A stretch of 64,000 bases of DNA from Minisyncoccota bacterium. GTDB lineage: Bacteria; Patescibacteriota; Minisyncoccia; Phycocordibacterales; UBA1006. The stretch is taken from the NCBI GenBank assembly GCA_028697455.1, contig JAQVEZ010000003.1, forward strand, positions 42,972-106,971, written 5' to 3'. The translations under genes were made by a program, and so were the position numbers. The notes under the pieces were generated by a model. That model worked only from the letters and a program-made list of their open reading frames with translations, had not been told where the DNA came from and ran no database searches. Within the stretch, counting starts at the first letter, position 1. Each line of letters starts with the position of its first letter. Of this stretch, positions 1,165 to 57,886 are shown in pieces.

Positions 1165-3927
1165 TTACCGATAGCGACCCATAATATCACGCTCAACCTC
1201 TTCTCTTGGTTTCCCATATTTCAAAAAAGATATTTGTTTTATTTTTTCTGAAACTCCTTGTGGATTTTTTTGAACAAAATACTCAAGAGGGAGTGTTTGA
1301 ATATTAAAAGGAGCAAGTGGTTTCCCATTTCCAATCATCTGAATATAGGCATTTCGGTTGGGGATACGCATAATATCATCTGCAGAAAATTGCGGGAGAA
1401 AACGTTTTTCTACATACTGCGCATCCTCAAAAGAAATACGAAAAGAAGCCATAGACCCCACGTTACCAAAGACCGCGTTTTTGATTCCTTCATCAAGCTG
1501 AGCAATAAATTGGTGAGCAACAATAAGCCCGAGCCCATACTTTCGTGCCTCAGAGAGGATTTGTGAAATAGAATCGGTTGTCACATTCTGAAACTCGTCA
1601 ATATATAAATAAAATGGAGGAAGCTCCTTATCAAGCGAATCAACACGAGACAAGGCTGCCATCAAAATCTTTCCAACAAGGATAAGCCCGATCAGGTTTG
1701 CATTAATTTCTCCAAGTCGTCCTTTTGAAAGATTCACCAAGAGAATCTTTTTACTATCCATGATATCTCGAAAATTAAAGGATGATGTTTGTTGAGCAAT
1801 AATAGGACGCATGATCTCATTCGAAATCATTGGATCAAATTTTGAGGTAATATAAGGAACAAAGTTTTCAAGTCCCTGCTCTCCTGTTGTTTTTTCAGCA
1901 TTCTCCCAAAACTGTTTAATAATAGGGTTTTTACAATGTTGTAACTTTAAATCTCGGAAATTCTTATCCGCCAAGACTCTTCCAATCTCAAGAAGCGTGC
2001 TTCCTGACTCAAGGTGTTCCATAACAAGCCCTGCTGAGTTTCGAAAATACTGCTCAAACATAGCACCTCCTCCAACCTTCATATCAAAAAGCTTGTTAAA
2101 AATACCCATCATTTCGTTAATAACAAAAGACTTTTGCTCGGGGTAACGAGGATCAAATTCAAGCATATTTAATCCCATTGGTCTTTCGACAGATGAAGGG
2201 TCAAAATAAATAACATCATCAATTCTTTCAGGGGGGATAAAGTCCAAGATATCTTGAATATCAGAACCATGAGGATCGATAAAGCAAACCCCCTCTCCGT
2301 TCTTGATATCTTGAATAAGCATCTGTTTCAAGAGGTGAGTCTTTCCAGTCCCTGTCTGTCCAATCACATAAAAATGTCTCAAACGATCTTCAGGTGTCAT
2401 ATGAATCATCATTTCTCTATGACGAAAAACATTCTTCCCAAGAATAATACCTTCTTGTGGAGTATCAGAAGGAGCTGGTGCACTCTTATTACTTTCTTGT
2501 TTTAACTGAGAGGTCTCAGATATCTCAAGAGGAAAATGAAAAAGTGTAGAAAGCTCTTTGAGATTTAGTTTAAAAGTATATCGATCATTAAAAAAACGAA
2601 AAACAAAATCCTGAATTGATTGCTCGAGCTGAGAACCACGCTGTGTCTCAAAACGAATACCATTCCCTTTTGGATTATTAAACTGCTGAAAAGCCGAACT
2701 CAGGCTGTGGAGAATTTCATCCGAACGCTGTTTTGTTTCTGCAGAAGTAATAATACGAATATTTGTTTGAACGATAGTGCTATTAAGTTTTTCAGTGATT
2801 TCTCGGATAGCGTCTTCGTCAATTTTCTTTTCGGGAATGTCGGTTTTACTTTCTTCTTTTTGCTGAGAAAAAACATCTCCAACATTCTTTTTAAAATCAG
2901 AAATGAATGAGTTTTTCTTTGCTGCAACCTTAAGGGTGTCTCCCTTTTTGAGATTATCTAAAATCTCTCCATACTCTTTAATGTAATCACCATCAATAGG
3001 CATCACGATAAACTGCACAGCAGCCCCTTCTCCAGATTTTTTAAGCTTAGAAAAAGTATTCACCAAAACACTCATTGGGTCGTGGTCAAAGTTATCATAA
3101 GTTTTGAGCGTAAGAACATCATTCTGAGTATACTCAGCATAAGCAGATGAGCTTATTCCCGAATAGCTAAAAATATTATAATCATCAAAAACTTCAGTAA
3201 TTTTTACATCCTCAAAAAGCCCAAGGAGTTGTTTTTCAAAAAGATCTGCACGTGATTCAGGAACTGTTACATATAAAGACATGTCATCTTCTCCTTCGGG
3301 TAATGCAAGTTCAAGCGTGTAGTAATTCTTTTCTTTGTTCCGAGGATCACTCGCGATTGATTGCATCCCCGCCATAAACTGCTCCATAAGAGAGACAATC
3401 TGTTTGAAATCACGACTCTCTCCTGTTACTTTCTTGTTAGGAAGAATCACTTCAAAAATCCTCAACCCAAGTGATTTTGAAAGGTCTGATTTTGGTTTAA
3501 GGCCTGGAAGCTCATAATGAGACGCCAGATACTGAACAAGAAACCGATGAAAATCATCAAGGATATGATCATTCCCCATTTTTGAAACAATCTCAAGAGT
3601 ATTTTTGAGCCCTCGTTTAAGAAGAATTCCATAAAGATCTTCAATAATGGTATCGTGGTCTTCTGGAGAAAGTCTGAGCGTAATCCCTTCCATTTCAGAA
3701 TCTTCAACGCGGTATCCGTCTTCAAGAAGATCTTCTTGGGGTTGTTTTTTATATTGTTCGAGAAAATGCTCCGCAGCTTCTTCTCTTTTTTGTTCATATG
3801 GAATATTTTTCTTTTCGAGTGTTTGAAATTCTTTCTCTATTTCTTTTTGAACAAATTGAGTTTCTTCGGCAGAGTTCTTAAAACGTGGTTTTCGTTCAAG
3901 GTTGTCAAAAAAATCATGAGGATCCAT
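1165..3927 (-). CDS. VirD4/TraG/TraD-like (TrwB_AAD_bind / TraG-D_C family) P-loop ATPase with a long acidic/basic N-terminal region
   Basis: Walker A FYVIGQTGTGKTHLL and Walker B-like PFYLYIDEFQNV followed by ARKYGLGLIVAHQFIAQL resemble type IV coupling proteins. The start was moved to MDPHDFF (the ATG at 3925-3927) because a TATAAT box lies 6 nt upstream; the ORF caller's longer start at 3966 has no promoter support. Confidence 0.45.
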   Translation of the reverse strand: MDPHDFFDNLERKPRFKNSAEETQFVQKEIEKEFQTLEKKNIPYEQKREEAAEHFLEQYKKQPQEDLLEDGYRVEDSEMEGITLRLSPEDHDTIIEDLYGILLKRGLKNTLEIVSKMGNDHILDDFHRFLVQYLASHYELPGLKPKSDLSKSLGLRIFEVILPNKKVTGESRDFKQIVSLMEQFMAGMQSIASDPRNKEKNYYTLELALPEGEDDMSLYVTVPESRADLFEKQLLGLFEDVKITEVFDDYNIFSYSGISSSAYAEYTQNDVLTLKTYDNFDHDPMSVLVNTFSKLKKSGEGAAVQFIVMPIDGDYIKEYGEILDNLKKGDTLKVAAKKNSFISDFKKNVGDVFSQQKEESKTDIPEKKIDEDAIREITEKLNSTIVQTNIRIITSAETKQRSDEILHSLSSAFQQFNNPKGNGIRFETQRGSQLEQSIQDFVFRFFNDRYTFKLNLKELSTLFHFPLEISETSQLKQESNKSAPAPSDTPQEGIILGKNVFRHREMMIHMTPEDRLRHFYVIGQTGTGKTHLLKQMLIQDIKNGEGVCFIDPHGSDIQDILDFIPPERIDDVIYFDPSSVERPMGLNMLEFDPRYPEQKSFVINEMMGIFNKLFDMKVGGGAMFEQYFRNSAGLVMEHLESGSTLLEIGRVLADKNFRDLKLQHCKNPIIKQFWENAEKTTGEQGLENFVPYITSKFDPMISNEIMRPIIAQQTSSFNFRDIMDSKKILLVNLSKGRLGEINANLIGLILVGKILMAALSRVDSLDKELPPFYLYIDEFQNVTTDSISQILSEARKYGLGLIVAHQFIAQLDEGIKNAVFGNVGSMASFRISFEDAQYVEKRFLPQFSADDIMRIPNRNAYIQMIGNGKPLAPFNIQTLPLEYFVQKNPQGVSEKIKQISFLKYGKPREEVERDIMGRYR

Positions 3928-3984
3928 GATCTCATTATACGCTAAAAAATATAAATAAAAAAACACTCACAAACTGAGCATCTT

Positions 3985-4305
3985 TTATGCAAGACTGGTG
4001 ATCTTTACTTTCATAAAGTGCTGTCGATGCCCTTTCTTTTTAAAGTATCGTGTTTTTGATTTATATCGAATCACGGTTACTTTTTTAGAAAGTCCTTGTT
4101 CAACAAGTTCACCAGAAACTTTTGCTCCAGACAGGAATGGGGTTCCGATATTGGTTACTGAACCATCGTCAGTAAGCAATACGTTTTCAAAAACAATTTT
4201 ATCCCCTGTCTTGAAGTCTCCATCTAATTTTTCGATGGTGATAAGATCACCTTCGGAAACGCGGTATTGTTTCCCACCGGTTTCAATAATTGAAAACTTA
4301 CTCAT
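3985..4305 (-). CDS. rplU: 50S ribosomal protein L21
   Basis: MSKFSIIETGGKQYRVSEGDLITIEKL is the canonical bL21 N-terminus. The internal Met was chosen as the start because TTGTCA-16 bp-TATAAT lies 10 nt upstream. Confidence 0.9.
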   Translation of the reverse strand: MSKFSIIETGGKQYRVSEGDLITIEKLDGDFKTGDKIVFENVLLTDDGSVTNIGTPFLSGAKVSGELVEQGLSKKVTVIRYKSKTRYFKKKGHRQHFMKVKITSLA

Positions 4306-4344
4306 AACAAGGGCTATTATACATAAATAGCTTTTTATGACAAG

Positions 4345-4386
4345 CCCGCACACTTACTCCGCCAGCTGGCAGAGTAAGTGTGCGGG
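4345..4386. promoter_or_regulatory. 42-bp near-perfect palindrome (15-bp perfect arms CCCGCACACTTACTC / GAGTAAGTGTGCGGG around a GCCAGCTGGC-containing loop), immediately upstream of the rplU promoter and of the divergent 4456 gene
   Basis: Seen directly in the sequence. The arms are GC-rich within AT-rich intergenic DNA, and a -35-like TTGTCA/TGACAA abuts each side. Confidence 0.5.
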
Positions 4387-4455
4387 TTGACAAAAATATA
4401 AAATAGGTATATAATGGACTTTGAGAATAATGTTTAACAAAAAAATATTCAAAAA

Positions 4456-4920
4456 ATGGAAAAAATAGAAAGCATTGTAAATCCAAACCTTTTTTTAGAC
4501 TATGGGAAAGAAAACGGGAAGAATGATTTTTTCAAATTTACCTTCCTTGGTAACCCTATTTTTAAAATACCTTTTCTTTTCTTTTCAAAAGAATTTGAAC
4601 CTCTAAAAAAAGTTCCATGTTATGAAATACTTTCTAAAGCAATGAATAATTTTGGAATCAAAAAATATTATGGTGAAAAAATAATCAAAGAGCCTCAAGA
4701 GGTTATTCAAGAAATGCATTACATAACAACTTGTAAGGATACAACTTTTACCGATGAAAAAATTAATCTTTGGAACTACAAAATTCCAAATGAAAAATTG
4801 TTTTATTTATTAGGTTGTATTTACAATAAGAGTAAAGATGAATGGATATTTTTCATATCTGATGAAATAGCAGAGTCTAGTAAATTTTATCCACCCTTAG
4901 GAACTCGTATTTTTACCTAA
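4456..4920 (+). CDS. hypothetical protein
   Basis: 154-aa ORF between rplU and cysS, followed by a rho-independent terminator at 4926-4957. No recognisable domain. Confidence 0.4.
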   Translation: MEKIESIVNPNLFLDYGKENGKNDFFKFTFLGNPIFKIPFLFFSKEFEPLKKVPCYEILSKAMNNFGIKKYYGEKIIKEPQEVIQEMHYITTCKDTTFTDEKINLWNYKIPNEKLFYLLGCIYNKSKDEWIFFISDEIAESSKFYPPLGTRIFT

Positions 4921-4925
4921 AATTA

Positions 4926-4957
4926 AAACTGTCTACTTAACCGTAGGCAGTTTTTTA
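4926..4957 (+). terminator. intrinsic terminator (ctgtctac-loop-gtaggcag followed by TTTTTT)
   Basis: Hairpin plus T-run directly after the stop of the 4456-4920 ORF. Confidence 0.6.
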
Positions 4958-4994
4958 ACTTCAAAAAACACCCCTACTCTGTTATACTTCCCTT

Positions 4995-6383
4995 ATGAAA
5001 CTCTATAATTCCCTAACGAATCAGAAAGAAACTTTTACCCCTCTAAGTGCTGGTAAGGTATCTATGTACCACTGTGGGCCAACGGTGTATGACTATGTCC
5101 ATATTGGGAATTTGCGATCATTTTTGCTCGCGGATTTTGTTCGTAGAGTTTTTGAATATCAGGGATATGCGGTAACTCAAGTCATGAATATCACCGACAT
5201 TGGACACCTCGTTTCTGATGGAGACGACGGTGACGACAAAATGACCAAAGCACTAAAACGAGAAGGTAAAGACATCACCCTAGAAAATATGCTCGCTCTG
5301 GCTGATTTTTATGCAAATGCTTTTAAGAATAACTTACAGGAACTCAACATTGAGACCCCGCATTTTATTCCCAAAGCTTCAGAACACATTGATGAGGATA
5401 TCAAGATTATCAAACAACTCGAAACAAAAGGATATACCTATATCACCAGTGACGGAGTGTATTTTGATACTGCCAAAATGGCCGATTACGGAAAACTTGG
5501 AGGAATTAATAATGGGAACAACGAAAACCGTATCGCCGAAAATACTGAGAAAAAACAATCAGCTGACTTTGCTTTGTGGAAGTTTGATAATAACCAGGGC
5601 TGGGACTCTCCTTGGGGACAAGGTTTCCCTGGATGGCACATAGAATGTTCTGGTATGGGAATTAAATACCTTGGAGAGCAATTTGATATTCATACTGGAG
5701 GAATTGACCTCAAGAGTATTCATCACAACAATGAAATTGCTCAATCAGAATCGGCTACTGGTTGCTCACCATTTGTATCTTATTGGTTGCATGGAGAAAT
5801 GCTCAATTTTAGAGGAGAAAAACTCTCTAAATCAACGGGTGGAAATATCACCCTTGCTGTTCTCAAGGATCAAGACTTCTCACCTCTTGACTATCGCTAT
5901 CTCACCCTTCAAACACATTACCGTTCTCCTATGGAGTTCAGCTTTGAAATTTTAGAACAAGCAAAGAACGCCCTTGCTCGTATCAAAAAAGACATTCTCA
6001 GGCTCAAAAAAGAAAATCCTGACACAAAAATAATCGATATAAAAAATCATTCTTACCAAAAAGAATTCCTAGAGAAAATCCAAGACGATATAAATATTCC
6101 TCAAGCACTTGCAGTTTTTCACGAAATGATGAAATCAGATATCTCTGATAACGAAAAATTATCTCTTGCTTATGATTTTGATCATATCTTTGGGCTTGGT
6201 CTTGAACAGCTCCACGAAGAGACCTTTGCTGTGCCAGACAGGGTCCATGAACTTCTCGATGAACGTGCAAACGCGCGTAAGAACAAAAATTGGGAACTCT
6301 CTGATACTCTTCGAGATGCTATCGTGCAAGAAGGCTACCGAGTCATCGATAGTGGTGATAAACAGGAAATTCAAAAACTTTAA
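4995..6383 (+). CDS. cysS: Cysteinyl-tRNA synthetase
   Basis: Carries the class I motifs HIGN (HIGH) and KLSKS (KMSKS) and the CysRS-typical CGPTVYDYVHIGN…WHIECS. TTATACT lies 7 nt upstream of the ATG. Confidence 0.9.
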   Translation: MKLYNSLTNQKETFTPLSAGKVSMYHCGPTVYDYVHIGNLRSFLLADFVRRVFEYQGYAVTQVMNITDIGHLVSDGDDGDDKMTKALKREGKDITLENMLALADFYANAFKNNLQELNIETPHFIPKASEHIDEDIKIIKQLETKGYTYITSDGVYFDTAKMADYGKLGGINNGNNENRIAENTEKKQSADFALWKFDNNQGWDSPWGQGFPGWHIECSGMGIKYLGEQFDIHTGGIDLKSIHHNNEIAQSESATGCSPFVSYWLHGEMLNFRGEKLSKSTGGNITLAVLKDQDFSPLDYRYLTLQTHYRSPMEFSFEILEQAKNALARIKKDILRLKKENPDTKIIDIKNHSYQKEFLEKIQDDINIPQALAVFHEMMKSDISDNEKLSLAYDFDHIFGLGLEQLHEETFAVPDRVHELLDERANARKNKNWELSDTLRDAIVQEGYRVIDSGDKQEIQKL

Positions 6384-6410
6384 AACACCTTCTCATAAGG
6401 TGTTTTATTT

Positions 6411-6686
6411 TTAGAAAGTACGATCAAGATAATCATTAATATTCTTACTTGTTGTATCTATCTGAGACTGTATTGATGAAAAGAAGTTCTTAACTGAAGA
6501 ATTCATCTCAACAACAGCTGCCTGACTATCTGTAGGCAAATCATCAGCAATATCATCGAGGCCTTCTTCTCTTAATGTTTCTTCTGTCGTTGTTTGTTCA
6601 AGGGTAGTACTTTTTTGAAAGGCGCTGTACGCAAAATAAGCAAGGAGCGCAATGATAATAATAACGAAAAGGTTTTTCATACTCAT
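6411..6686 (-). CDS. small membrane-anchored or secreted hypothetical protein
   Basis: N-terminal hydrophobic segment FVIIIIALLAYFAYSAF. GGTATACT lies 8 nt upstream of the ATG. Confidence 0.45.
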   Translation of the reverse strand: MSMKNLFVIIIIALLAYFAYSAFQKSTTLEQTTTEETLREEGLDDIADDLPTDSQAAVVEMNSSVKNFFSSIQSQIDTTSKNINDYLDRTF

Positions 6687-11066: not shown

Positions 11067-11092
11067 CCAAAAAACACCTCTCGGTGTTTTTG
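11067..11092. terminator. bidirectional intrinsic terminator AAAAAACACCTCTCGGTGTTTTT, a member of a recurrent terminator family
   Basis: Hairpin flanked by A- and T-runs between convergent genes 10475-11044 (+) and 11109-12428 (-). Confidence 0.6.
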
Positions 11093-11108: not shown

Positions 11109-12428
11109 TTAATTCTCTTGTCCCTGCATTGCAGAAAGGAGTTGTTGATAGAGTCCCAAAAGTTCAGTATAGATATTTACCAAAGGATTGTTATTTATAA
11201 ATCCGTTTTGTGGTCTACAGAAAGTCGTTACTCCCGCTGAACAAAATCGGGTTCCGAAAATGCTTGAGGATTTTGAAGAAGTTGATGACTCTTCAGAGTT
11301 TTTAAAAATAAAGATAGATTGATTATAATAACTACCATTTGCATCCCCGAGAATGACAAACTGTCCATCTGCATAAATAATTTGGGAGGCGTTCATATAA
11401 TCACTTGTACCAAGAGTGGGGATAAGGTACTCCCACACTTCCCCTCCAAAGGAATAAGTGAGGACTTCGTTCCATTCACTGTCCTGCATATAACCAACCC
11501 CGATATAAAGACCGTCTCCATAGGTAATTGATCGTGGGGCAAAAGAAGCATCTCCTGAAACCATTTTTGCTATCCAGTCTGTCCCGTTTTTTGAAGTAAA
11601 AATTTGGTGATCACCTCCAATGATAAACTCCCCATTAAGATACTCCATTTGCCCTCTAAGATGACCTTCTAATCCCTCAATAGTATTAAACCCTGTTGTT
11701 TCATCAGGAATAAACCAATGGGCCCCTCCATCTTGAGAGAGAAGAGGTTCAAAAATAATCGGAGACATCATATCTTCCCGAGTCGAAAGAAGCGATATCA
11801 AAAGAACATCTCCATTTTGGTCATATCCTGCAGCAAGGTGCGAGGATACACCAAGAGGATTATCTTCTACCTCTCCTTTACTCCAGTGCACTCCATCATT
11901 TGAATAAATAATATAGGGTTCTTCTGTTCCTATCATCATATTTCTTTCAATCCCAACCGCCACAAATAATCCTCTGTCGTTAGAAGTATCATACACATAA
12001 GAAACCTTACTTAATTCTCCGTAAGTTTTTGTTATTTCTGGTAATGAGGTTTCAGAGGTATTTTGATCATAAGAATTCCAATTCTCCCCATCACTCGAGG
12101 TATAAACAAGAGGAAGATCATTTGAACGTTTTCCAACAGCAACAAACTTACCATCCCCATAACTAACCCATGACAGATTACCTATTATACCTGTACTTTC
12201 CCAGTTAACAGCATCAGAGGAATAAGCTATCTGACCTCCTCCAACGAGGACATACATTTCATCTCCATAAGCAATAGATGAAAAGGATGATGGCCAAGAA
12301 TCATCAGGAAAAATCAAAGATTCACTCCACTCAACAGGTTGAGCAGAAGCTGTGTGTGGATTAATAAAACTTGTAAAACCTACTATAACAAATAATGATA
12401 GTAGTGACATAAAGGTGTATTTTTTCAT
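11109..12428 (-). CDS. Secreted BNR/Asp-box repeat beta-propeller protein with a conserved two-cysteine C-terminal domain (paralog A)
   Basis: Signal peptide MKKYTFMSLLSLFVIVGF…ASA. Five or more S-x-D-G-x-x-W Asp-box motifs (YSSDAVNWES, TSSDGENWNS, YSNDGVHWSKG, LSQDGGAHWF, TSKNGTDWIAK) alternate with YGDGKFVAVG-type strands. The C-terminus SSIFGTRFCSAGVTTFCRPQNGFINNNPLVNIYTELLGLYQQLLSAMQGQEN is shared with the ORFs at 37368 and 56623. Confidence 0.7.
   Translation of the reverse strand: MKKYTFMSLLSLFVIVGFTSFINPHTASAQPVEWSESLIFPDDSWPSSFSSIAYGDEMYVLVGGGQIAYSSDAVNWESTGIIGNLSWVSYGDGKFVAVGKRSNDLPLVYTSSDGENWNSYDQNTSETSLPEITKTYGELSKVSYVYDTSNDRGLFVAVGIERNMMIGTEEPYIIYSNDGVHWSKGEVEDNPLGVSSHLAAGYDQNGDVLLISLLSTREDMMSPIIFEPLLSQDGGAHWFIPDETTGFNTIEGLEGHLRGQMEYLNGEFIIGGDHQIFTSKNGTDWIAKMVSGDASFAPRSITYGDGLYIGVGYMQDSEWNEVLTYSFGGEVWEYLIPTLGTSDYMNASQIIYADGQFVILGDANGSYYNQSIFIFKNSEESSTSSKSSSIFGTRFCSAGVTTFCRPQNGFINNNPLVNIYTELLGLYQQLLSAMQGQEN
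11122..11275. repeat. Copy 1 of a ~150-bp conserved 3'-end cassette (encodes the shared C-terminal domain) of the BNR paralogs
   Basis: CTGCATTGCAGAAAGGAGTTGTTGATAGAGTCCCAA…GTTCAGTATAGATA… is ~85-90% identical to 37386-37540 and 56637-56790, while the remainder of the genes has diverged. Confidence 0.7.
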
Positions 12429-12488
12429 ACTCTTCTAGTATACCAACCTTAGCTTTGAATGCAAAACAAAAAACACCTCTCGGTGTCT

Positions 12489-12890
12489 TTATCGTTTTGA
12501 CCACGCTGGTCGCTTTCGTGCCTTGCGGAGTCCTGGTTTCTTTCGCTCTTTACTTCGAGGATCTCGCTTGAGATATCCTGCTGATTTGAGGCTTGGGCGA
12601 AGCTCTTCGTTATATTTGGTAAGTGCTCGTGCAATACCATGGCGAATAGCATCTGCTTGTGCAGCGATTCCTCCTCCACGAACAATAATGCTTACCATAA
12701 AGTCATCTTTGGTCTCGACAGCGGTGAATGATGCTCGCACTACTTTTTGATGCTCTTCGATAGGAAAATACTCTTCAAGAGTTTTCTCGTTGATGATGTA
12801 GGTCATCTTGCTATCAGGAGTAATACGGACCTGGGCAATTGCATTTTTTCTTCTTCCTATTGCAGGAATATATTGTGTTGATTTAGCCAT
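12489..12890 (-). CDS. rpsI: 30S ribosomal protein S9
   Basis: Conserved C-terminal …GYLKRDPRSKERKKPGLRKARKRPAWSKR. Confidence 0.95.
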   Translation of the reverse strand: MAKSTQYIPAIGRRKNAIAQVRITPDSKMTYIINEKTLEEYFPIEEHQKVVRASFTAVETKDDFMVSIIVRGGGIAAQADAIRHGIARALTKYNEELRPSLKSAGYLKRDPRSKERKKPGLRKARKRPAWSKR

Positions 12891-32925: not shown

Positions 32926-33508
32926 ATTTATTTTCTTGAATATTTTTTACAACGCTTTCAATAAAATTGAGAACGTCTCCAATTTCGTTATAAATAATAG
33001 AAATATTTCCTGAGCTTCGATTAAGTCCTAATCGCTCTCGACAAAAAGATGTTACCGTATCACTACAAAAACGAACTCCTGCCAATCGAGTCTGAGAAGG
33101 AAACGCAATTGCTCTCAAGGGAAATGCGTAACAATACCCGGAACAGTCTCCGTCTCCAAAAAGGTCTGGAAGTTTCTCTCCTCCTTTATTAAGGAACCAT
33201 TCGCCCGTGCTGTTCTGAGTATCACCATCGCCTCCTCCGGCTTTTGTTGCCTCACCACGTGTAGTTGTCCCATCACCAGCAGAATCTACGCCTCCTGCAT
33301 AAGCAGAGCCATCCCCCGCACCATTGGTTGCGCTATAAGGAATCCCATCACCAAGCCCCGTATAAAAATCTAGAACATGAGGAAGGCCTGATGAAGAGCT
33401 TGATGTTTGTGCAACAGCTTTGTTTATCTCGGGATTAAAAAGAGTAAAAACCAATACGAAGGCAAGCCCAAAAAGCCCTCCGATAATCATTTTGCTATTT
33501 ATTTTCAT
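32924..33508 (-). CDS. Secreted Gly/Asp-rich protein carrying the same two-cysteine C-terminal domain family as the BNR paralogs (short member)
   Basis: Signal peptide MKINSKMIIGGLFGLAFVLVF. The C-terminus …VRFCSDTVTSFCRERLGLNRSSGNISIIYNEIGDVLNFIESVVKNIQENK aligns with RFCSAGVTTFCRPQNGF…IYTELLGLYQQLLSAMQGQEN. TGGTATAAT lies 7 nt upstream of the ATG. Confidence 0.55.
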   Translation of the reverse strand: MKINSKMIIGGLFGLAFVLVFTLFNPEINKAVAQTSSSSSGLPHVLDFYTGLGDGIPYSATNGAGDGSAYAGGVDSAGDGTTTRGEATKAGGGDGDTQNSTGEWFLNKGGEKLPDLFGDGDCSGYCYAFPLRAIAFPSQTRLAGVRFCSDTVTSFCRERLGLNRSSGNISIIYNEIGDVLNFIESVVKNIQENK

Positions 33509-37137: not shown

Positions 37138-37367
37138 AGATGAAAACAGTATAACACGAAACACCCCTTCCATTCAAAAAAACCCTCCAAAGAAGGTTTT
37201 TTTGTGTAGCTTTGAATTTAAGAACATTGACATAAAGCCAAGTGGGATTCAGAAATTATAAACCAAGATTTACAACTATCAAGATTCCCGTGTTCAAAGT
37301 GTTTCAAAGTCTTTGCATTCAAAGACTACACCTTAAGTATAGCACAATCCAAAACAAAAAACAGCTC

Positions 37368-38609
37368 TTATAAGCTGTTTTCACTTTGCATTGCAGAAAG
37401 GAGTTGTTGATAGAGTCCCAAGAGTTCAGTATAGATACTGATCAGAGGATTATTGTTAGTAAATCCATTTTGAGGTCTACAGAAAGTCGTAACGGTTTCA
37501 GAGCAGAAACGAGTTCCGAAGATGCTTGAAGAGCGAGGAAACAAATTTCCATTATCCTTTTGTAATGTTCCAGTCAAGAAAACAGAGCTTGAGCCATCGT
37601 TATAAAGTGGCCCCCCTATAACAACATACTGATCATCTTCATAAAACATAAATATCGGAATAAAATCTAAAAAAGGAAATTCTTCTCGTTCCCAACTCTC
37701 TAAATTATTTGAACTAAAAAGATAATTTGTACTAGTCGCCTCTTCCACGTCAAAAATAGACCCTCCTGTTACATAGAGATTGTTGGTATATGTTACATTC
37801 TTGTGTAAACCAAGTTCTCCGTCTCCAAAAGGAGAACTATGCTCATTCCATGTGATTCCATCTGACGAGATGAATAGATGAGCAGTTTCATCTTCATCCA
37901 TTACACTGAGTATAAAGAGATTATTTGTAGAGTTAAAAGACGTCACTTCTCCTTCTGGAAAAGAAGATGTCCTATCGTCCCACTCAATTCCGTCACTTGA
38001 AGTAAGAACTAAATCATTAGATATAATAACAAACAACTCATTACCATAAAAAACAAAAGCTGCAGAGGCGGGAGCGGACGAAGGGGTTTGTTCAGTCCAT
38101 GTGATTCCGTCACTTGAAGTGTATATCTTTGGTGCTATTACCGGTGAATTTGTTGTAAGAACAAAGAGATCCTTACCATATGCAATAGAAAGAACCGATT
38201 CCTCATCAAGACCAAGGTCTTCTACTTCGTTCCATTGCTTTCCGTCAGGTGAAATGAAAACGCGAGGTGACACCGCTCCCAAGGGTCCCAAGAGTGAGTG
38301 TATACTACCACCAGCCACAAAGGTGTCATTTCCATAAGCGACAGAATTAATAACCCCAAGACCGTCGAGATCTTGCTCAGTCCATTTAATTCCATCTTCG
38401 GAAGTAAGAATAAGCGGAGTAAAGTCTGTCAAATCTTCACCCTTTACTCCTCCAACAGCAACAAAAAGGTTATCTTCATGAATAACAGAAGATACAAGAT
38501 AATTAGAAGGTGTTGGATGAATCTTCCATTCAATCTCCTGTGCGAATAATGTCCCAGCTCCTCCGAAAAGCAAAGCTGAAGCGAGTAATATATATGTATA
38601 CTTTTTCAT
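37368..38609 (-). CDS. Secreted BNR/Asp-box repeat beta-propeller protein with the conserved two-cysteine C-terminal domain (paralog B), driven by a G9-tract promoter
   Basis: Signal peptide MKKYTYILLASALLFGGAGTLFA. Asp-boxes TSEDGIKWTEQ, ISPDGKQWNEV, TSSDGITWTEQ, TSSDGIEWDDR, ISSDGITWNEH. C-terminus SSSIFGTRFCSETVTTFCRPQNGFTNNNPLISIYTELLGLYQQLLSAMQSENSL. Confidence 0.7.
   Translation of the reverse strand: MKKYTYILLASALLFGGAGTLFAQEIEWKIHPTPSNYLVSSVIHEDNLFVAVGGVKGEDLTDFTPLILTSEDGIKWTEQDLDGLGVINSVAYGNDTFVAGGSIHSLLGPLGAVSPRVFISPDGKQWNEVEDLGLDEESVLSIAYGKDLFVLTTNSPVIAPKIYTSSDGITWTEQTPSSAPASAAFVFYGNELFVIISNDLVLTSSDGIEWDDRTSSFPEGEVTSFNSTNNLFILSVMDEDETAHLFISSDGITWNEHSSPFGDGELGLHKNVTYTNNLYVTGGSIFDVEEATSTNYLFSSNNLESWEREEFPFLDFIPIFMFYEDDQYVVIGGPLYNDGSSSVFLTGTLQKDNGNLFPRSSSIFGTRFCSETVTTFCRPQNGFTNNNPLISIYTELLGLYQQLLSAMQSENSL
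37386..37540. repeat. Copy 2 of the conserved 3'-end cassette
   Basis: See 11122-11275. Confidence 0.7.
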
Positions 38610-38617
38610 ACCCCTCT

Positions 38618-38646
38618 ATTATATCTTCTGCCCCCCCCCGAGTCAA
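38618..38646 (-). promoter_or_regulatory. Sigma70-type promoter TTGACT-17 bp-TATAAT with a G9 homopolymer in the spacer (C9 on the plus strand, 38631-38639); the ATG is 8 nt downstream of the -10 box. Candidate phase-variable promoter, ON length.
   Basis: Read directly. The coding strand is AAAAAACTTGACTCGGGGGGGGGCAGAAGATATAATAGAGGGGTATG. Confidence 0.65.
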
Positions 38647-44989: not shown

Positions 44990-45532
44990 TTAATTTGAAG
45001 CCTCACAAGGTACTCGTGCATAACTCATGATAGAGAATTCTTTGCTCGTATCAGGGACAAGCTCATCCCCACTTTCAATCAGGGGATAACGGAGTTTTTC
45101 AAGCCCAGTAAGACTTGTTCGATAGATTTCAGCTTCTTTTCCCTCTGATCCTTCAATTATATATGAATAAATGGCATTAATATTCTCTCCCTGTACAGTT
45201 CCCGAGATATTTCCTTGGTATCCATTTGTCATATCAGGGCCACTCTGCGTTCCTGATTTTGTTCCTTTAACTTCGTTCCCAGTAATCGTAATATCCAGAA
45301 ACTCATTCACGGTATAAGGCTCTTCAGGACTTACCTCGTGAGCATACGAGAAACACTGTCTCCCATCAAGGAGAGCAAATTTCGCCTGCTCTTCTCCCCC
45401 TTCTTCTTGATTCTCTTGTATCACCTCATTGTTGGACAGATTCTGTTCTTTTATCTCAGAATTTCTCACAACAACAAAAGCAATCATAAAAACAAAAATC
45501 AAAAACACAAACACATAAAAAGCTTTTTTCAT
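44990..45532 (-). CDS. membrane-anchored or secreted hypothetical protein
   Basis: N-terminal hydrophobic helix AFYVFVFLIFVFMIAFVVV. It shares a ~55-bp promoter/terminator module with paralog A (TGCTATACT 8 nt upstream of the ATG). Confidence 0.45.
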   Translation of the reverse strand: MKKAFYVFVFLIFVFMIAFVVVRNSEIKEQNLSNNEVIQENQEEGGEEQAKFALLDGRQCFSYAHEVSPEEPYTVNEFLDITITGNEVKGTKSGTQSGPDMTNGYQGNISGTVQGENINAIYSYIIEGSEGKEAEIYRTSLTGLEKLRYPLIESGDELVPDTSKEFSIMSYARVPCEASN

Positions 45533-45600
45533 ACCCTTTTAGTATAGCAACCTTAGCTTTAAATTAAAAACCAAAAAACACCTCCCAGTGTCTTTCCTAG

Positions 45601-55812: not shown

Positions 55813-56592
55813 TCAAAGTTGATGCTCAGCAATCTGAGTTCTTTTTATTCTCAACGACAGTGCCCCACATCCATAATGTTCTCCAATAGAGTGTACCAAA
55901 GAACGAATGTAGGTTCCCGAAGATACCCCAAATCGTGCTGTAAAGACAGTATAACGGTTATCAGGCCTCTCGTCCAAATATCTTTCCCAGTGTGATTTAA
56001 TTTCTTCTTGTCGAAAATCTCCTTCAATAAAGTCAATGACCGAAAGATATTCTGAGATAAGTTCCCCACGCTTAAGCTCTCTGTGAGAAACAAGCTCAGC
56101 AGAAAAAACTTCACGTGATTCTTTGGGAAAAATAATGCCATCAAGCTGATCTTCACGTGCATATTGCCAGAGAGACTTTCCTTTGATTGTTTTTGATGAG
56201 TATGGTGGATATTCCTGCTCCTGAACCCCTGCAAGAGATCCAACAAAAGAGCTCAAGTCTTTTTTATGAGGAAAGGGTTTTGGGTCTTTTGTCTCTTTGA
56301 GGATTCCAAGAGCATCATAAGTATCAGAAGAAACCCCAAAGAGAAAATCAACTTCATAGGTTTTGGAAAGTTTGTTATAGCGGTCCTTGTGGTGGACATC
56401 TTCATCTGTAAGGAGGATCATCAACCCTTCGGCAAGAGGATCGAGTCGTCCTGCGTAGGTAATCTTTGCATCTTGAAATTCAGGATGGGTAGATCGGAAT
56501 CTCTCAAGGGTTATCAAAAGAGTTTCTCCGTATTTTTTATTCCAATGAATCACTGCCATCGTGCCCATTATACTCATAAAACCAAAAAACAC
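55813..56592 (-). CDS. truB: tRNA pseudouridine(55) synthase TruB-like
   Basis: YAGRLDPLAEGLMILL (GTLDPxAxGxL catalytic-Asp motif) and KTYEVDFLFGVSSDTYDALG (KxYxV…G.xTDTxDxxG). Confidence 0.7.
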   Translation of the reverse strand: MFFGFMSIMGTMAVIHWNKKYGETLLITLERFRSTHPEFQDAKITYAGRLDPLAEGLMILLTDEDVHHKDRYNKLSKTYEVDFLFGVSSDTYDALGILKETKDPKPFPHKKDLSSFVGSLAGVQEQEYPPYSSKTIKGKSLWQYAREDQLDGIIFPKESREVFSAELVSHRELKRGELISEYLSVIDFIEGDFRQEEIKSHWERYLDERPDNRYTVFTARFGVSSGTYIRSLVHSIGEHYGCGALSLRIKRTQIAEHQL

Positions 56593-56622
56593 CTCTCGGT
56601 GTTTTGTGTTCTCTATATAGAT

Positions 56623-57846
56623 TTAGTTCTCTTGCCCCTGCATTGCAGAAAGGAGTTGTTGGTAGAGTCCCAAGAGTTCAGTGTAGATACTGATCAATGG
56701 GTTGTTATTTACAAATCCGTTTTGAGGTCTACAGAAGGTAGTAACTCCGGCAGTACAGAATCGAGTTCCGAAGATGTTTGAGGATGAACCTTTTTGCGGA
56801 GGAAATTCTCCAAGAAGGATTCTGTTATTGTCATCAGATTCAAAAGCTACTGCAACAAATTTATTATCAGCATAAGCAACAGAAATATACCCGTGTTGTG
56901 GGTCGGTATCAACGGTCTCCCAGTTAATCCCATCCTTAGATATAGCAACAGCCTTTCCTGGTTCACTCAAATTATTATCGTAGTCATACGATACCATCAC
57001 AAAGTATCCATTTCCAAAAGCAATATCTTCCCACATTGCCTTGGTGTCAGGAGAAGAATAAGCTGTCCAATTCTTACCATCGCTTGATACAATAATATCT
57101 TGAGCAGCTCCATCATCTTCTGAGATGGCTACGAATTTACCATTTCCATAGGCAACACTGGTCCAAGATCCACCTCCAGCCACTGGTGCTGTAAAGTATT
57201 GCCAGGTTTGTCCTTTGTCTTCGGATACAGCGATGTGTTTTCCATCAGTTGCTGCTTGATTTTTAGACCCAACAACAACGATTTTTCCATCTCCATAAGC
57301 AATACCAGACCAATATTTAGATGCCTCTTCTCCTTTCGCCACCCAGTTTAATCCATCAGTTGAAATGTATATTTGTTTATAAGCACCTTTCCCGCTATAG
57401 CTTCGTGAATAATCAACTGCAACAAAAACATCATCAACAAAAGCGAGGTCTCCTATTTGAATTCCAGAAAAACTCCCCAAAGGAACGCCAGGAACTCCTG
57501 TCCAAGTTTCTCCCCCATCAGTTGATCGATAAAAAACATTACCAGACCAAGCATTTCCAAGAACAAAAGCTCCGTTTCCGTAAGCAATTCCAGTAAACCA
57601 TTGGCTCCCTCCCCAAGTAAATGGGGCTAGTTCCCAATTTTTACCATCTTCTGAGATCATAATACGATTTGTCCCATTTGAAGAAACTGCAACAAATTTC
57701 CCTTCACCATAGGTTACAGCACGCCAAGCATTTTGTGCAGGAGCTTCGATACTTGTCCATTCAATTTCATTTGCATAAGCATCTGTCCCTAAGAATGCAA
57801 GACTTAAAAAAAATATTGATAATAATATAAAATTAATTTTCTTCAT
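56623..57846 (-). CDS. Secreted BNR/Asp-box repeat beta-propeller protein with the conserved two-cysteine C-terminal domain (paralog C), driven by a G10-tract promoter
   Basis: Signal peptide MKKINFILLSIFFLSLAFLGTDAYA. Asp-boxes ISEDGKNWEL, RSTDGGETWTGV, ISTDGLNWVAKG, VSEDKGQTWQYF, VSSDGKNWTAY, ISKDGINWETV. C-terminus SSNIFGTRFCTAGVTTFCRPQNGFVNNNPLISIYTELLGLYQQLLSAMQGQEN. Confidence 0.7.
   Translation of the reverse strand: MKKINFILLSIFFLSLAFLGTDAYANEIEWTSIEAPAQNAWRAVTYGEGKFVAVSSNGTNRIMISEDGKNWELAPFTWGGSQWFTGIAYGNGAFVLGNAWSGNVFYRSTDGGETWTGVPGVPLGSFSGIQIGDLAFVDDVFVAVDYSRSYSGKGAYKQIYISTDGLNWVAKGEEASKYWSGIAYGDGKIVVVGSKNQAATDGKHIAVSEDKGQTWQYFTAPVAGGGSWTSVAYGNGKFVAISEDDGAAQDIIVSSDGKNWTAYSSPDTKAMWEDIAFGNGYFVMVSYDYDNNLSEPGKAVAISKDGINWETVDTDPQHGYISVAYADNKFVAVAFESDDNNRILLGEFPPQKGSSSNIFGTRFCTAGVTTFCRPQNGFVNNNPLISIYTELLGLYQQLLSAMQGQEN
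56637..56790. repeat. Copy 3 of the conserved 3'-end cassette
   Basis: See 11122-11275. Confidence 0.7.
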
Positions 57847-57855
57847 ATATTTTTT

Positions 57856-57886
57856 ATTGTATCATTCTGCCCCCCCCCCGAGTCAA
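57856..57886 (-). promoter_or_regulatory. Duplicated sigma70-type promoter TTGACT-19 bp-TACAAT with a G10 homopolymer in the spacer (C10 on the plus strand, 57870-57879). Candidate phase-variable promoter, apparently at a suboptimal (OFF) spacer length.
   Basis: Read directly. The coding strand is AAAACTTGACTCGGGGGGGGGGCAGAATGATACAATAAAAAATATATG, and the 27-bp core CTGCCCCCCCCC(C)GAGTCAAGTTTTTT is shared with 38628-38652. Confidence 0.6.

Follow-up and report, generated by a model that had tools for sequence, protein, structure and literature searches.

A conserved C-terminal Cys-loop and helix tail on variable signal-peptide proteins of a Paceibacteria lineage, a candidate surface-docking module

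This work concerns a C-terminal tail of about 50 residues that recurs on otherwise dissimilar proteins encoded in a 64,000-nucleotide stretch of DNA (hereafter the window; G+C 37.5%) from a Minisyncoccota bacterium (contig JAQVEZ010000003.1, positions 42,972 to 106,971 of the forward strand). Three dispersed genes of the window, here called A, B and C, each encode a signal peptide, a BNR/Asp-box beta-propeller, a linker and a closely similar copy of the tail, and a fourth, gene D, carries a divergent copy on a passenger of another kind. The features are as follows, with scores from a tail hidden Markov model (HMM).

11109..12428, minus strand: gene A, 439 aa (P0003); signal peptide, divergent Asp-box beta-propeller, Ser-rich linker and tail
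11112..11261, minus strand: tail of A, IFGTRFCSAGVTTFCRPQNGFINNNPLVNIYTELLGLYQQLLSAMQGQEN; 123.7 bits
37368..38609, minus strand: gene B, 413 aa (P0004, PHC89_02285); signal peptide, propeller, linker and tail
37371..37523, minus strand: tail of B; 124.4 bits
56623..57846, minus strand: gene C, 407 aa (P0002); signal peptide, propeller, linker and tail
56626..56775, minus strand: tail of C; 122 bits
32924..33508, minus strand: gene D, 194 aa (PHC89_02250); signal peptide, Gly/Asp-rich non-propeller passenger and divergent tail
32927..33085, minus strand: divergent tail of D, LAGVRFCSDTVTSFCRERLGLNRSSGNISIIYNEIGDVLNFIESVVKNIQENK
Example C-terminal peptide of the family tail: ...IYTELLGLYQQLLSAMQ

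The reading frames of A, B and C lie on the minus strand where an earlier note on this DNA had placed them, and they are dispersed among housekeeping genes as it had described, with A next to rpsI/rplM, B next to gyrB and C next to rnc/truB. All three N-termini are hydrophobic (maximum Kyte-Doolittle hydropathy over 19 residues, 1.4-1.9) and residues 4-18 of protein C are a helix in the AlphaFold2 (AF2) model, in keeping with the signal peptides claimed for them. When the tail HMM was run against the six-frame translation of the window, A, B and C scored 122-124 bits and the best unrelated segment 7 bits, and the likeness of the three tails lies far above chance; the same search returned D at 29.6 bits (E=3e-8), a score that rises to 71.5 bits with a wider profile. 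The three-member family of the earlier note is thereby borne out, but it had missed this fourth, divergent member. Its identity figures proved too high: the tails, put at over 90%, are slightly less alike, at 82-92% over 50 residues (41-42 of the 46 core residues), and the propeller bodies, put at 30-40%, are only 24-29% identical once signal peptide and tail are left out. An alignment of A, B and C over their whole length gives 36-38%, a value raised by the tail.

The passengers of A, B and C alternate Asp boxes with YG(D/N)GxFV-like strands. By regular expression, the strict box S-x-D-G-x-x-W, of which five or six per protein had been claimed, occurs only 2, 5 and 4 times in A, B and C, respectively, and a relaxed pattern gives 5, 6 and 4, alongside 4, 6 and 7 of the strands; gene C holds two further box variants, one residue longer, that were recognised by eye (STDGGETW and SEDKGQTW). 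Pfam matches of the propellers to BNR_2, Sortilin-Vps10 and DUF6242 lie at or under threshold. In the AF2 model of protein C (mean predicted local distance difference test (pLDDT) 82; 40-sequence alignment), residues ~28-347 form an all-beta propeller with pLDDT mostly above 90, for which Foldseek gives the seven-bladed Ycf48 propellers as the closest solved folds (E=6e-14, target-normalised TM-score 0.70). Repeated boxes, the AF2 propeller fold and the Ycf48 match together place the passengers of A, B and C among the BNR/Asp-box beta-propellers, a character that they share with propellers of the Ycf48/DUF6242_C type. One source labels P0002 a 'sialidase family protein'; its best structural matches are the non-enzymatic Ycf48 proteins.

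Structure prediction, which the earlier note had proposed as a check, sets the tail apart from the propeller. In protein C, residues 350-381 (linker and Cys loop) fall below pLDDT 50-55 and residues 383-405 form a separate helix; across AF2 models the helix reaches 60-93 and the Cys loop about 50. Because AF2 completes the propeller while keeping the tail outside it, and because the tail also occurs independently on non-propeller passengers, it is not the closing blade that the earlier note had considered as an alternative, and is instead an autonomous C-terminal module. Modelled alone from 12 sequences, the tail yields one helix (pLDDT 81-93) and no strands, with the loop undefined at about 50. 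The isolated tail is not predicted as a compact domain, which is consistent with folding on a partner.

An alignment of 12 diverse tails resolves three parts: a Ser-rich linker, a Cys loop and, after 10-14 variable and often N-rich residues, a helix. The Cys loop comprises 12 residues, R-F-C-x6-F-C-R, is preceded by (I/L)xG(T/V) and has (V/E)-(T/V)-(T/S) directly before its F-C-R; the G, R, F and C of G-x-R-F-C, and then the F, C and R, are invariant. The helix opens with Tyr, which is invariant, and Glu, which is nearly so, and positions 36, 37, 39, 40, 43, 44, 46, 47, 50, 51 and 54 are hydrophobic in at least 92% of the 12 tails, with polar residues between them and a periodicity peak at 100-103 degrees. 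Read from Tyr40, this is an hpphhph heptad with a broad two-seam hydrophobic face covering 4 of 7 positions, a kind of face that typifies helices packed into the interior of multi-helix bundles. Along the helix, Glu, Gln, Thr and Ser recur at regular spacing; the canonical helix has no Lys or Arg, and neither residue occurs in the last 8 positions of the canonical tails. Maximum Kyte-Doolittle values over 19 residues are 0.8-1.3 for the tails of nine of ten carriers (1.8 in P0126) and, among carriers whose N-terminus is complete, 1.4-2.3 for the signal peptide, and the net charge of the tail is -2 to 0 in 11 of the 12 (+2 in P0127). The divergent tails of D, P0126 and P0127, at 31-43% identity, retain both the Cys loop and the heptad layout.

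An amphipathic helix at the C-terminus of an exported protein could serve as an in-plane membrane anchor, as does the C-terminal helix of Escherichia coli PBP5. On that account the tail helix would lie in the outer leaflet of the cytoplasmic membrane, aided by the Arg/Phe-rich loop, and the periodicity at 100 degrees, the two invariant Arg and two invariant Phe that flank the Cys pair and the want of any other anchor in the carriers all fit. We nevertheless judge it improbable. The net charge in all but one of the tails is unfavourable for anionic lipids, the canonical helix offers Glu and Gln and no Lys or Arg, with an acidic or polar end; in addition, lipid binding rarely needs near-invariance across paralogues whose bodies are 25% identical, and a hydrophobic face as wide as this one is more typical of helix bundles.

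Outside the window, the tail recurs on other contigs of the metagenome-assembled genome (MAG) from which the window derives (Candidatus Pacebacteria bacterium, locus tags PHC89_*), to whose entries the window proteins are identical (A at 100%); A-D and the following proteins make up its 11 carriers.

PHC89_00065 (P0123): two blades and tail
PHC89_00200, PHC89_01105 and PHC89_01515 (P0010, P0009 and P0007): propellers and tail
PHC89_01475 (P0122): 283-aa acidic-repeat non-propeller protein and tail
PHC89_02925 (P0125): 130-aa Gly-rich protein and tail
PHC89_02510 (P0001): 78-aa tail-only fragment

To estimate how widely the tail is distributed, we ran an exhaustive HMMER search of a nine-tail profile against 1.84 billion cluster representatives (E<=0.001). 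Seventeen proteins matched, about 15 of which are real, and all named carriers come from this lineage; P0128 and P0129 are apparently spurious matches to unrelated repeat-rich sequence, with P0130 on the borderline. The real hits all match to within a few residues of their C-terminal end, and all carriers with a complete N-terminus begin with a signal-like segment; whether the tail keeps this position and company was the check that the earlier note had proposed. At least four types of passenger are represented: propellers, the acidic-repeat protein P0122, the Gly-rich proteins P0125 and D, and the 115-aa Cys-containing P0127. Word-index protein searches with tail profiles returned only P0001 even though full-length carriers are in the database, a result that is a limit of sensitivity and not a sign of rarity; the exhaustive scan is the valid estimate of distribution. 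Tail-based scans of genome and metagenome contig collections gave no confirmed tail locus, and P0001 and P0007 were not located on contigs. No model in the Pfam or NCBIfam libraries covers the tail, and the tail profile matches no PDB chain sequence even at E<=10, which agrees with the earlier view of it as an unnamed domain. Within the collections searched, the tail has no detectable relatives outside a narrow Paceibacteria lineage. The 78-aa P0001 is barely more than a linker and a perfect tail, and could be a relic, or else a silent copy that donates sequence in tail conversion.

Since a small C-terminal domain on unrelated signal-peptide proteins recalls the known sorting signals, we compared the tail with the criteria given by Haft for LPXTG/sortase, PEP-CTERM/exosortase, GlyGly-CTERM/rhombosortase, and the MYXO-CTERM, JDVT-CTERM and CGP-CTERM domains with their myxosortases (10.1101/2023.06.07.544157). 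If the tail were a true sorting signal, a dedicated enzyme would recognise and cut it, after which the passenger would be linked covalently to wall, lipid or another protein; one of the invariant Cys could be involved, as has been suggested for the MYXO-CTERM class with its Cys. Four of the six features are present (10.1101/2023.06.07.544157), including the extreme C-terminal position, 11 copies per genome and the signal peptides; the passengers are unrelated, an invariant signature stands at the start of the domain, and both Cys are invariant, as in the MYXO-CTERM class. The tail differs, however, in having neither a transmembrane helix nor an Arg/Lys cluster and in ending in a polar amphipathic helix (hydrophobicity 0.8-1.3 in nine of ten, 0 Lys/Arg in the last 8 residues of the canonical tails), so that the features which place such signals in the membrane beside their enzyme are missing. 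It is conserved over all of its ~50 residues and not in a short motif only, it matches no NCBIfam sorting-domain model, and no candidate processing enzyme was found; a Pfam search of ten unassigned open reading frames (ORFs) of the window returned no sortase, Dsb or anchor-like protein. Because the transmembrane segment and the basic cluster, the two features that define the mechanism, are absent, we do not file the tail with LPXTG, PEP-CTERM or MYXO-CTERM, whose catalogued sequences and architectures it does not match, and we consider a sorting signal of this kind unlikely.

The remaining analogy drawn in the earlier note, to the Por secretion C-terminal domain, does not hold either. The C-terminal domain (CTD) of the type IX secretion system (T9SS) is a ~70-100-aa beta-sandwich (PF18962/TIGR04183), whereas the tail gives no Pfam or NCBIfam match and is predicted by AF2 as one helix with no strands. 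The mechanistic parallel with LPXTG, PEP-CTERM and Por-CTD is on these grounds not supported, as there is no transmembrane-grade segment, no basic cluster and no ~80-aa beta-sandwich. The earlier note had left the choice between a sorting or anchoring signal and a conserved interaction module, and of these it is the interaction module that fits better. Among known modules of that sort, a dockerin (duplicated F-hand, PF00404) is likewise set aside, with no Pfam match at E<=1 and a single helix in the model; neither a duplicated Ca-binding loop nor a D/N-x-D/N-x-D loop was seen in the tail by eye, a comparison that was not computed. The logic that we propose for the tail is nonetheless that of dockerin-cohesin pairs and of SLH, LysM, GW and WxL domains, in which a small constant module docks diverse passengers non-covalently, but the tail matches none of them in Pfam, is much shorter, and consists of one helix and a stapled loop.

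The coding sequences reveal how the tail is maintained. Nei-Gojobori estimates over 46 codons of the canonical tails give proportions of synonymous and nonsynonymous differences (pS and pN) of 0.33-0.80 and 0.02-0.08, with dS spanning 0.4 to saturated and, beside dS values of 0.7 to above 2, dN/dS at 0.03-0.1, and the third codon position varies at almost every tail codon across eight genes; the amino-acid sequence of the tail is therefore under strong purifying selection and not merely recently copied. At identical residues, codons are shared at the codon-usage expectation in the bodies (for example, 32 observed and 31.2 expected for A-B) and above it in the tails (26-30 observed versus 18-20 expected), and the last ~50 nt are nearly identical in the three window copies A, B and C. 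Helix-coding DNA haplotypes cluster by genome rather than by gene or orthology, with one haplotype common to A, B and C and another to P0005, P0008 and part of P0006, and the orthologues C and P0005 use the same codons at 76% of positions in the body and 49%, the chance level, in the tail. This clustering by genome, together with the chance-level agreement of the orthologous tails, indicates that tails are exchanged among paralogues within genomes, and so undergo concerted evolution by gene conversion.

Heads are exchanged as well. Two loci from different samples (L001 and L003) are 96-98% identical over ~11 kb of common synteny, rnpA-dnaA-dnaN-ruvC-PBP1, a family gene, and yebC-ruvB, except that L001 7762-8702 and L003 9532-10439 have no detectable nucleotide similarity. 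The dissimilarity spans exactly the mature passenger, P0005 versus P0008, at codons ~36-349, and the two proteins are 96% identical in their signal peptides, 39% in their bodies and 98% in their tails. As only the passenger differs, the breakpoints of the swap fall in the segments that code for the signal peptide and for the linker and tail. Genes of the family also change position, as the C-type gene together with ~100 nt of upstream DNA (82% nucleotide identity) lies between PBP1 and yebC in L001 and between rnc and truB in the window. In L007-L009 a further family gene, that of P0127, separates a 91-aa gene from cysS; the window, otherwise 93-95% identical, lacks it. The cysS region itself (window 4951-6410 versus L007 1920-4293) is only 77% identical between flanks of 93-95%, and this drop, together with the presence or absence of P0127, makes the stretch look like an imported recombinant segment.

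The 91-aa protein (window 6411-6686, minus strand; L007 1641-1916), whose gene directly adjoins that of P0127 in the relatives, combines a membrane anchor at the N-terminus with an acidic stretch and an amphipathic helix at the C-terminus, and might, speculatively, be an envelope partner of the tail. Locus L002 carries two neighbouring family genes, a 147-aa Gly-rich one (3008-3451) and a propeller gene (3981-5426) that is split into a 47-aa signal-peptide ORF (3981-4124) and a body (4341-5426); the split could reflect a pseudogene, a frameshift or an assembly error.

These exchanges raise the alternative that the tail has no function as a peptide, and that its DNA is what counts, either as a homology handle for recombination between paralogues or through an overlapping RNA or terminator element, the conservation being the product of recent gene conversion. 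The breakpoints at the tail boundary, the haplotypes homogenised within genomes, the excess of same-codon use in tails and the near-identical last ~50 nt would all be expected of such a handle. Against it stand the heavily diverged synonymous sites beside barely changing amino acids (dN/dS 0.03-0.1), the variation of nearly every third position across eight genes, and the divergent tails of D, P0126 and P0127, which keep the Cys loop and heptad at 31-43% identity, and we give this alternative next to no credence.

A, B and C are each monocistronic and have a promoter-like site and a terminator-like hairpin of their own, as follows.

12437..12465, minus strand: promoter of A, TTTGCA, 17 nt, TGgTATACT; without a G tract
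38618..38646, minus strand: promoter of B, TTGACT-c-G9-cagaaga-TATAAT; 17-nt spacer, G9 at 38631-38639, 11 of 12 matches in the promoter scan
57856..57886, minus strand: promoter of C, TTGACT-c-G10-cagaatga-TACAAT (TGaTACAAT); 19-nt spacer, G10 at 57870-57879
11070..11091, minus strand: terminator-like hairpin of A, intrinsic type, just downstream of A
37357..37382, minus strand: terminator-like hairpin of B, overlapping the stop codon of B
56586..56605, minus strand: terminator-like hairpin of C, downstream of C

The spacers of B and C hold the only two G runs of at least 8 nt in the window, and across 140 kb (window and loci together) all G or C runs of at least 7 nt are spacer tracts of family genes, all others stopping at 6. 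The same layout precedes P0008 (G11, L003 9393-9403, 20-nt spacer) and the P0016/P0135 gene (G10, L010 3969-3978), and tracts also occur at the contig starts of L004, L011, L012 and L013. The tracts thus run through G9, G10, G10 and G11 with spacers from 17 to 20 nt; L001, 96% identical to L003, has an interrupted tract, and of five independent assemblies of the P0016/P0135 gene, four break off within the poly-G tract. The spacer of C lies outside the 16-18 nt optimum, and a promoter scan limited to 16-18 nt does not call the site. A homopolymer between the -35 and -10 boxes is the layout of slipped-strand phase-variable promoters, as known for Neisseria porA and opc, Bordetella fim and Mycoplasma vlp, and the G9-G11 tracts are, from their position and length, a probable slipped-strand switch that would turn expression ON and OFF. 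Homopolymeric tracts of Bordetella and the promoter poly-A tract of Neisseria nspA are treated in two earlier accounts (PMC1891110 and PMC6389960, respectively). With porA, opc and fim the family shares a G/C tract between -35 and -10 whose length varies among relatives, here through spacers of 17-20 nt, but switching at the Neisseria and Bordetella contingency loci is known and here it is inferred from sequence.

The -10 boxes stand 8-11 nt before the ATG (12428-12445, 38609-38623 and 57846-57861, minus strand; 8 nt for gene B), which makes a normal Shine-Dalgarno spacing impossible, and the mRNAs of A, B and C are for this reason probably leaderless or nearly so. A promoter and start module of ~60 nt is 90-92% identical between gene A (12437-12478), window 45524-45583 and L005 450-512; the last two lie upstream of the window ORF 44990-45532, an unrelated secreted or membrane protein, and of P0006, the B-orthologue of another genome, which has no poly-G promoter. 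As the module is common to three genes, promoter modules seem to be shuffled too. Nearly the same hairpin (AAAACACCGAGAGGTGTTTTT) stands after A, after C and at 12469-12490, before A and downstream of rpsI, and its recurrence at several loci indicates that terminator sequences are reused. The family is a recombining, probably phase-variable gene set, an aspect that the earlier note overlooked.

We favour, tentatively and at somewhat under even odds, the reading that the tail is a non-covalent protein-protein docking or bundling module which keeps variable, probably phase-variable heads on the cell surface. The tail is the only element common to unrelated passengers, and selection acts on almost every one of its residues; the carriers show no further anchor, and their signal peptides, of the cleavable type, contain no lipobox. 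The proteins would be exported by Sec through these ordinary cleavable signal peptides, the Cys loop would be closed by a disulfide outside the cell, and the tail would then hold the proteins on the surface non-covalently, with the hydrophobic face of the helix and the stapled loop packing against one common partner or against other tails of the family. The partner could be an envelope protein or a component of the S-layer or of a pilus, and the constant 'plug' would carry exchangeable 'heads', that is, beta-propellers, acidic repeats and Gly-rich segments. Propellers of the same repeat type in other lineages carry envelope anchors, among them LPATG (P0057), a T9SS CTD and OmpA-like domains, and among the C-termini of 109 other propeller homologues four are transmembrane-like and one has LPATG; by analogy, these anchors lend weak support to a surface location of the family.

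Several considerations weigh against the docking reading. No conserved neighbour suggests itself as the partner, every family locus having different housekeeping neighbours, and export, signal-peptide cleavage and the disulfide are deduced from sequence, as phase variation is from tract position and length differences between assemblies. The hairpin form of the Cys loop is a guess, given the low AF2 confidence, and a single helix of ~20 residues is short for a stable coiled coil. Moreover, a common receptor, bundling of tail with tail and soluble secreted oligomers fit the data alike. In the last of these the proteins would be released, lectin- or enzyme-like factors, and the tail would only oligomerise them as a foldon-like bundling helix, an account that overlaps the docking reading and parts from it on one point, whether the assembly remains cell-bound. 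The helix pattern, the free helix given by AF2 and the lack of a membrane- or wall-binding signature agree with release, but it leaves unexplained why unrelated passengers, including low-complexity segments of 60-100 residues (P0125, P0127 and D), should carry the same oligomeriser, and why promoter tracts and head swapping, typical of exposed surface antigens, should accompany it; we hold it to be quite unlikely.

Pursuing the docking reading further, the tail may be the recognition element of an undescribed, non-tripartite surface-display system of Patescibacteria, in which heads would plug into a dedicated receptor or a multi-tail hub while poly-G switches and head swapping make the repertoire. 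This extension is doubtful, though a serious possibility. If true, it would amount to a minimal phase-variable system of constant stalk and variable head, for host recognition by an episymbiont or for phage evasion. Patescibacteria, also called the candidate phyla radiation (CPR), make up a large fraction of bacterial diversity, and the cultivated ones live attached to other microbes. In one of these, Saccharibacteria TM7x, the beta-propeller adhesin PilX2 is needed for host binding (PMC11623550). PilX2 resembles A-C in being a propeller-bearing protein of a CPR bacterium, but it is a minor type IV pilin with RCC1 repeats, whereas A-C have a cleavable Sec-type signal and the new tail; on this analogy, host or glycan binding by the propeller heads is plausible.

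That variable secreted proteins may share a constant C-terminal module is a known idea, and it is the domain itself that is absent from the curated libraries searched. The variable lipoproteins Vlp and Vsp of Mycoplasma have constant ends and a variable middle, and the vlp genes of M. hyorhinis bear a homopolymer in the promoter spacer. An account of the MASP proteins of Trypanosoma cruzi likewise describes conserved flanks around a variable central domain (PMC5636173). With both groups the present family shares conserved signal-peptide and C-terminal regions around a variable mature domain, dispersed paralogues and mosaic recombination; it differs in that their constant end is a known anchor (a lipobox or a GPI signal), whereas the tail has no recognisable anchoring chemistry, and in that its host is a Patescibacteria/CPR bacterium. 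CPR genomes are rich in diversity-generating retroelements; the tail was set aside as a variable region of such an element, as it is the constant part of the protein, and the template repeat and reverse transcriptase were not searched for. We found no report that links phase variation with the CPR in the literature searched, within which poly-G promoter tracts and exact head replacement are both unreported for this group. Promoter poly-G tracts and the exact replacement of passengers between strains that are 96-98% identical are two classic signs of contingency loci exposed to hosts or phages, and the 50-residue tail labels the variable secreted proteins of a single lineage, which number about 11 in a small genome. 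Finding its partner would define how these cells hold their surface proteins and would also yield a tag for protein display or purification in these bacteria.

Elsewhere in the window, a 933-aa ORF (1165-3966, minus strand) lies between ndk and rplU and is 95% conserved in relatives; its L007 counterpart matches DUF8128 and, faintly, the AAD domain of TrwB/coupling proteins.

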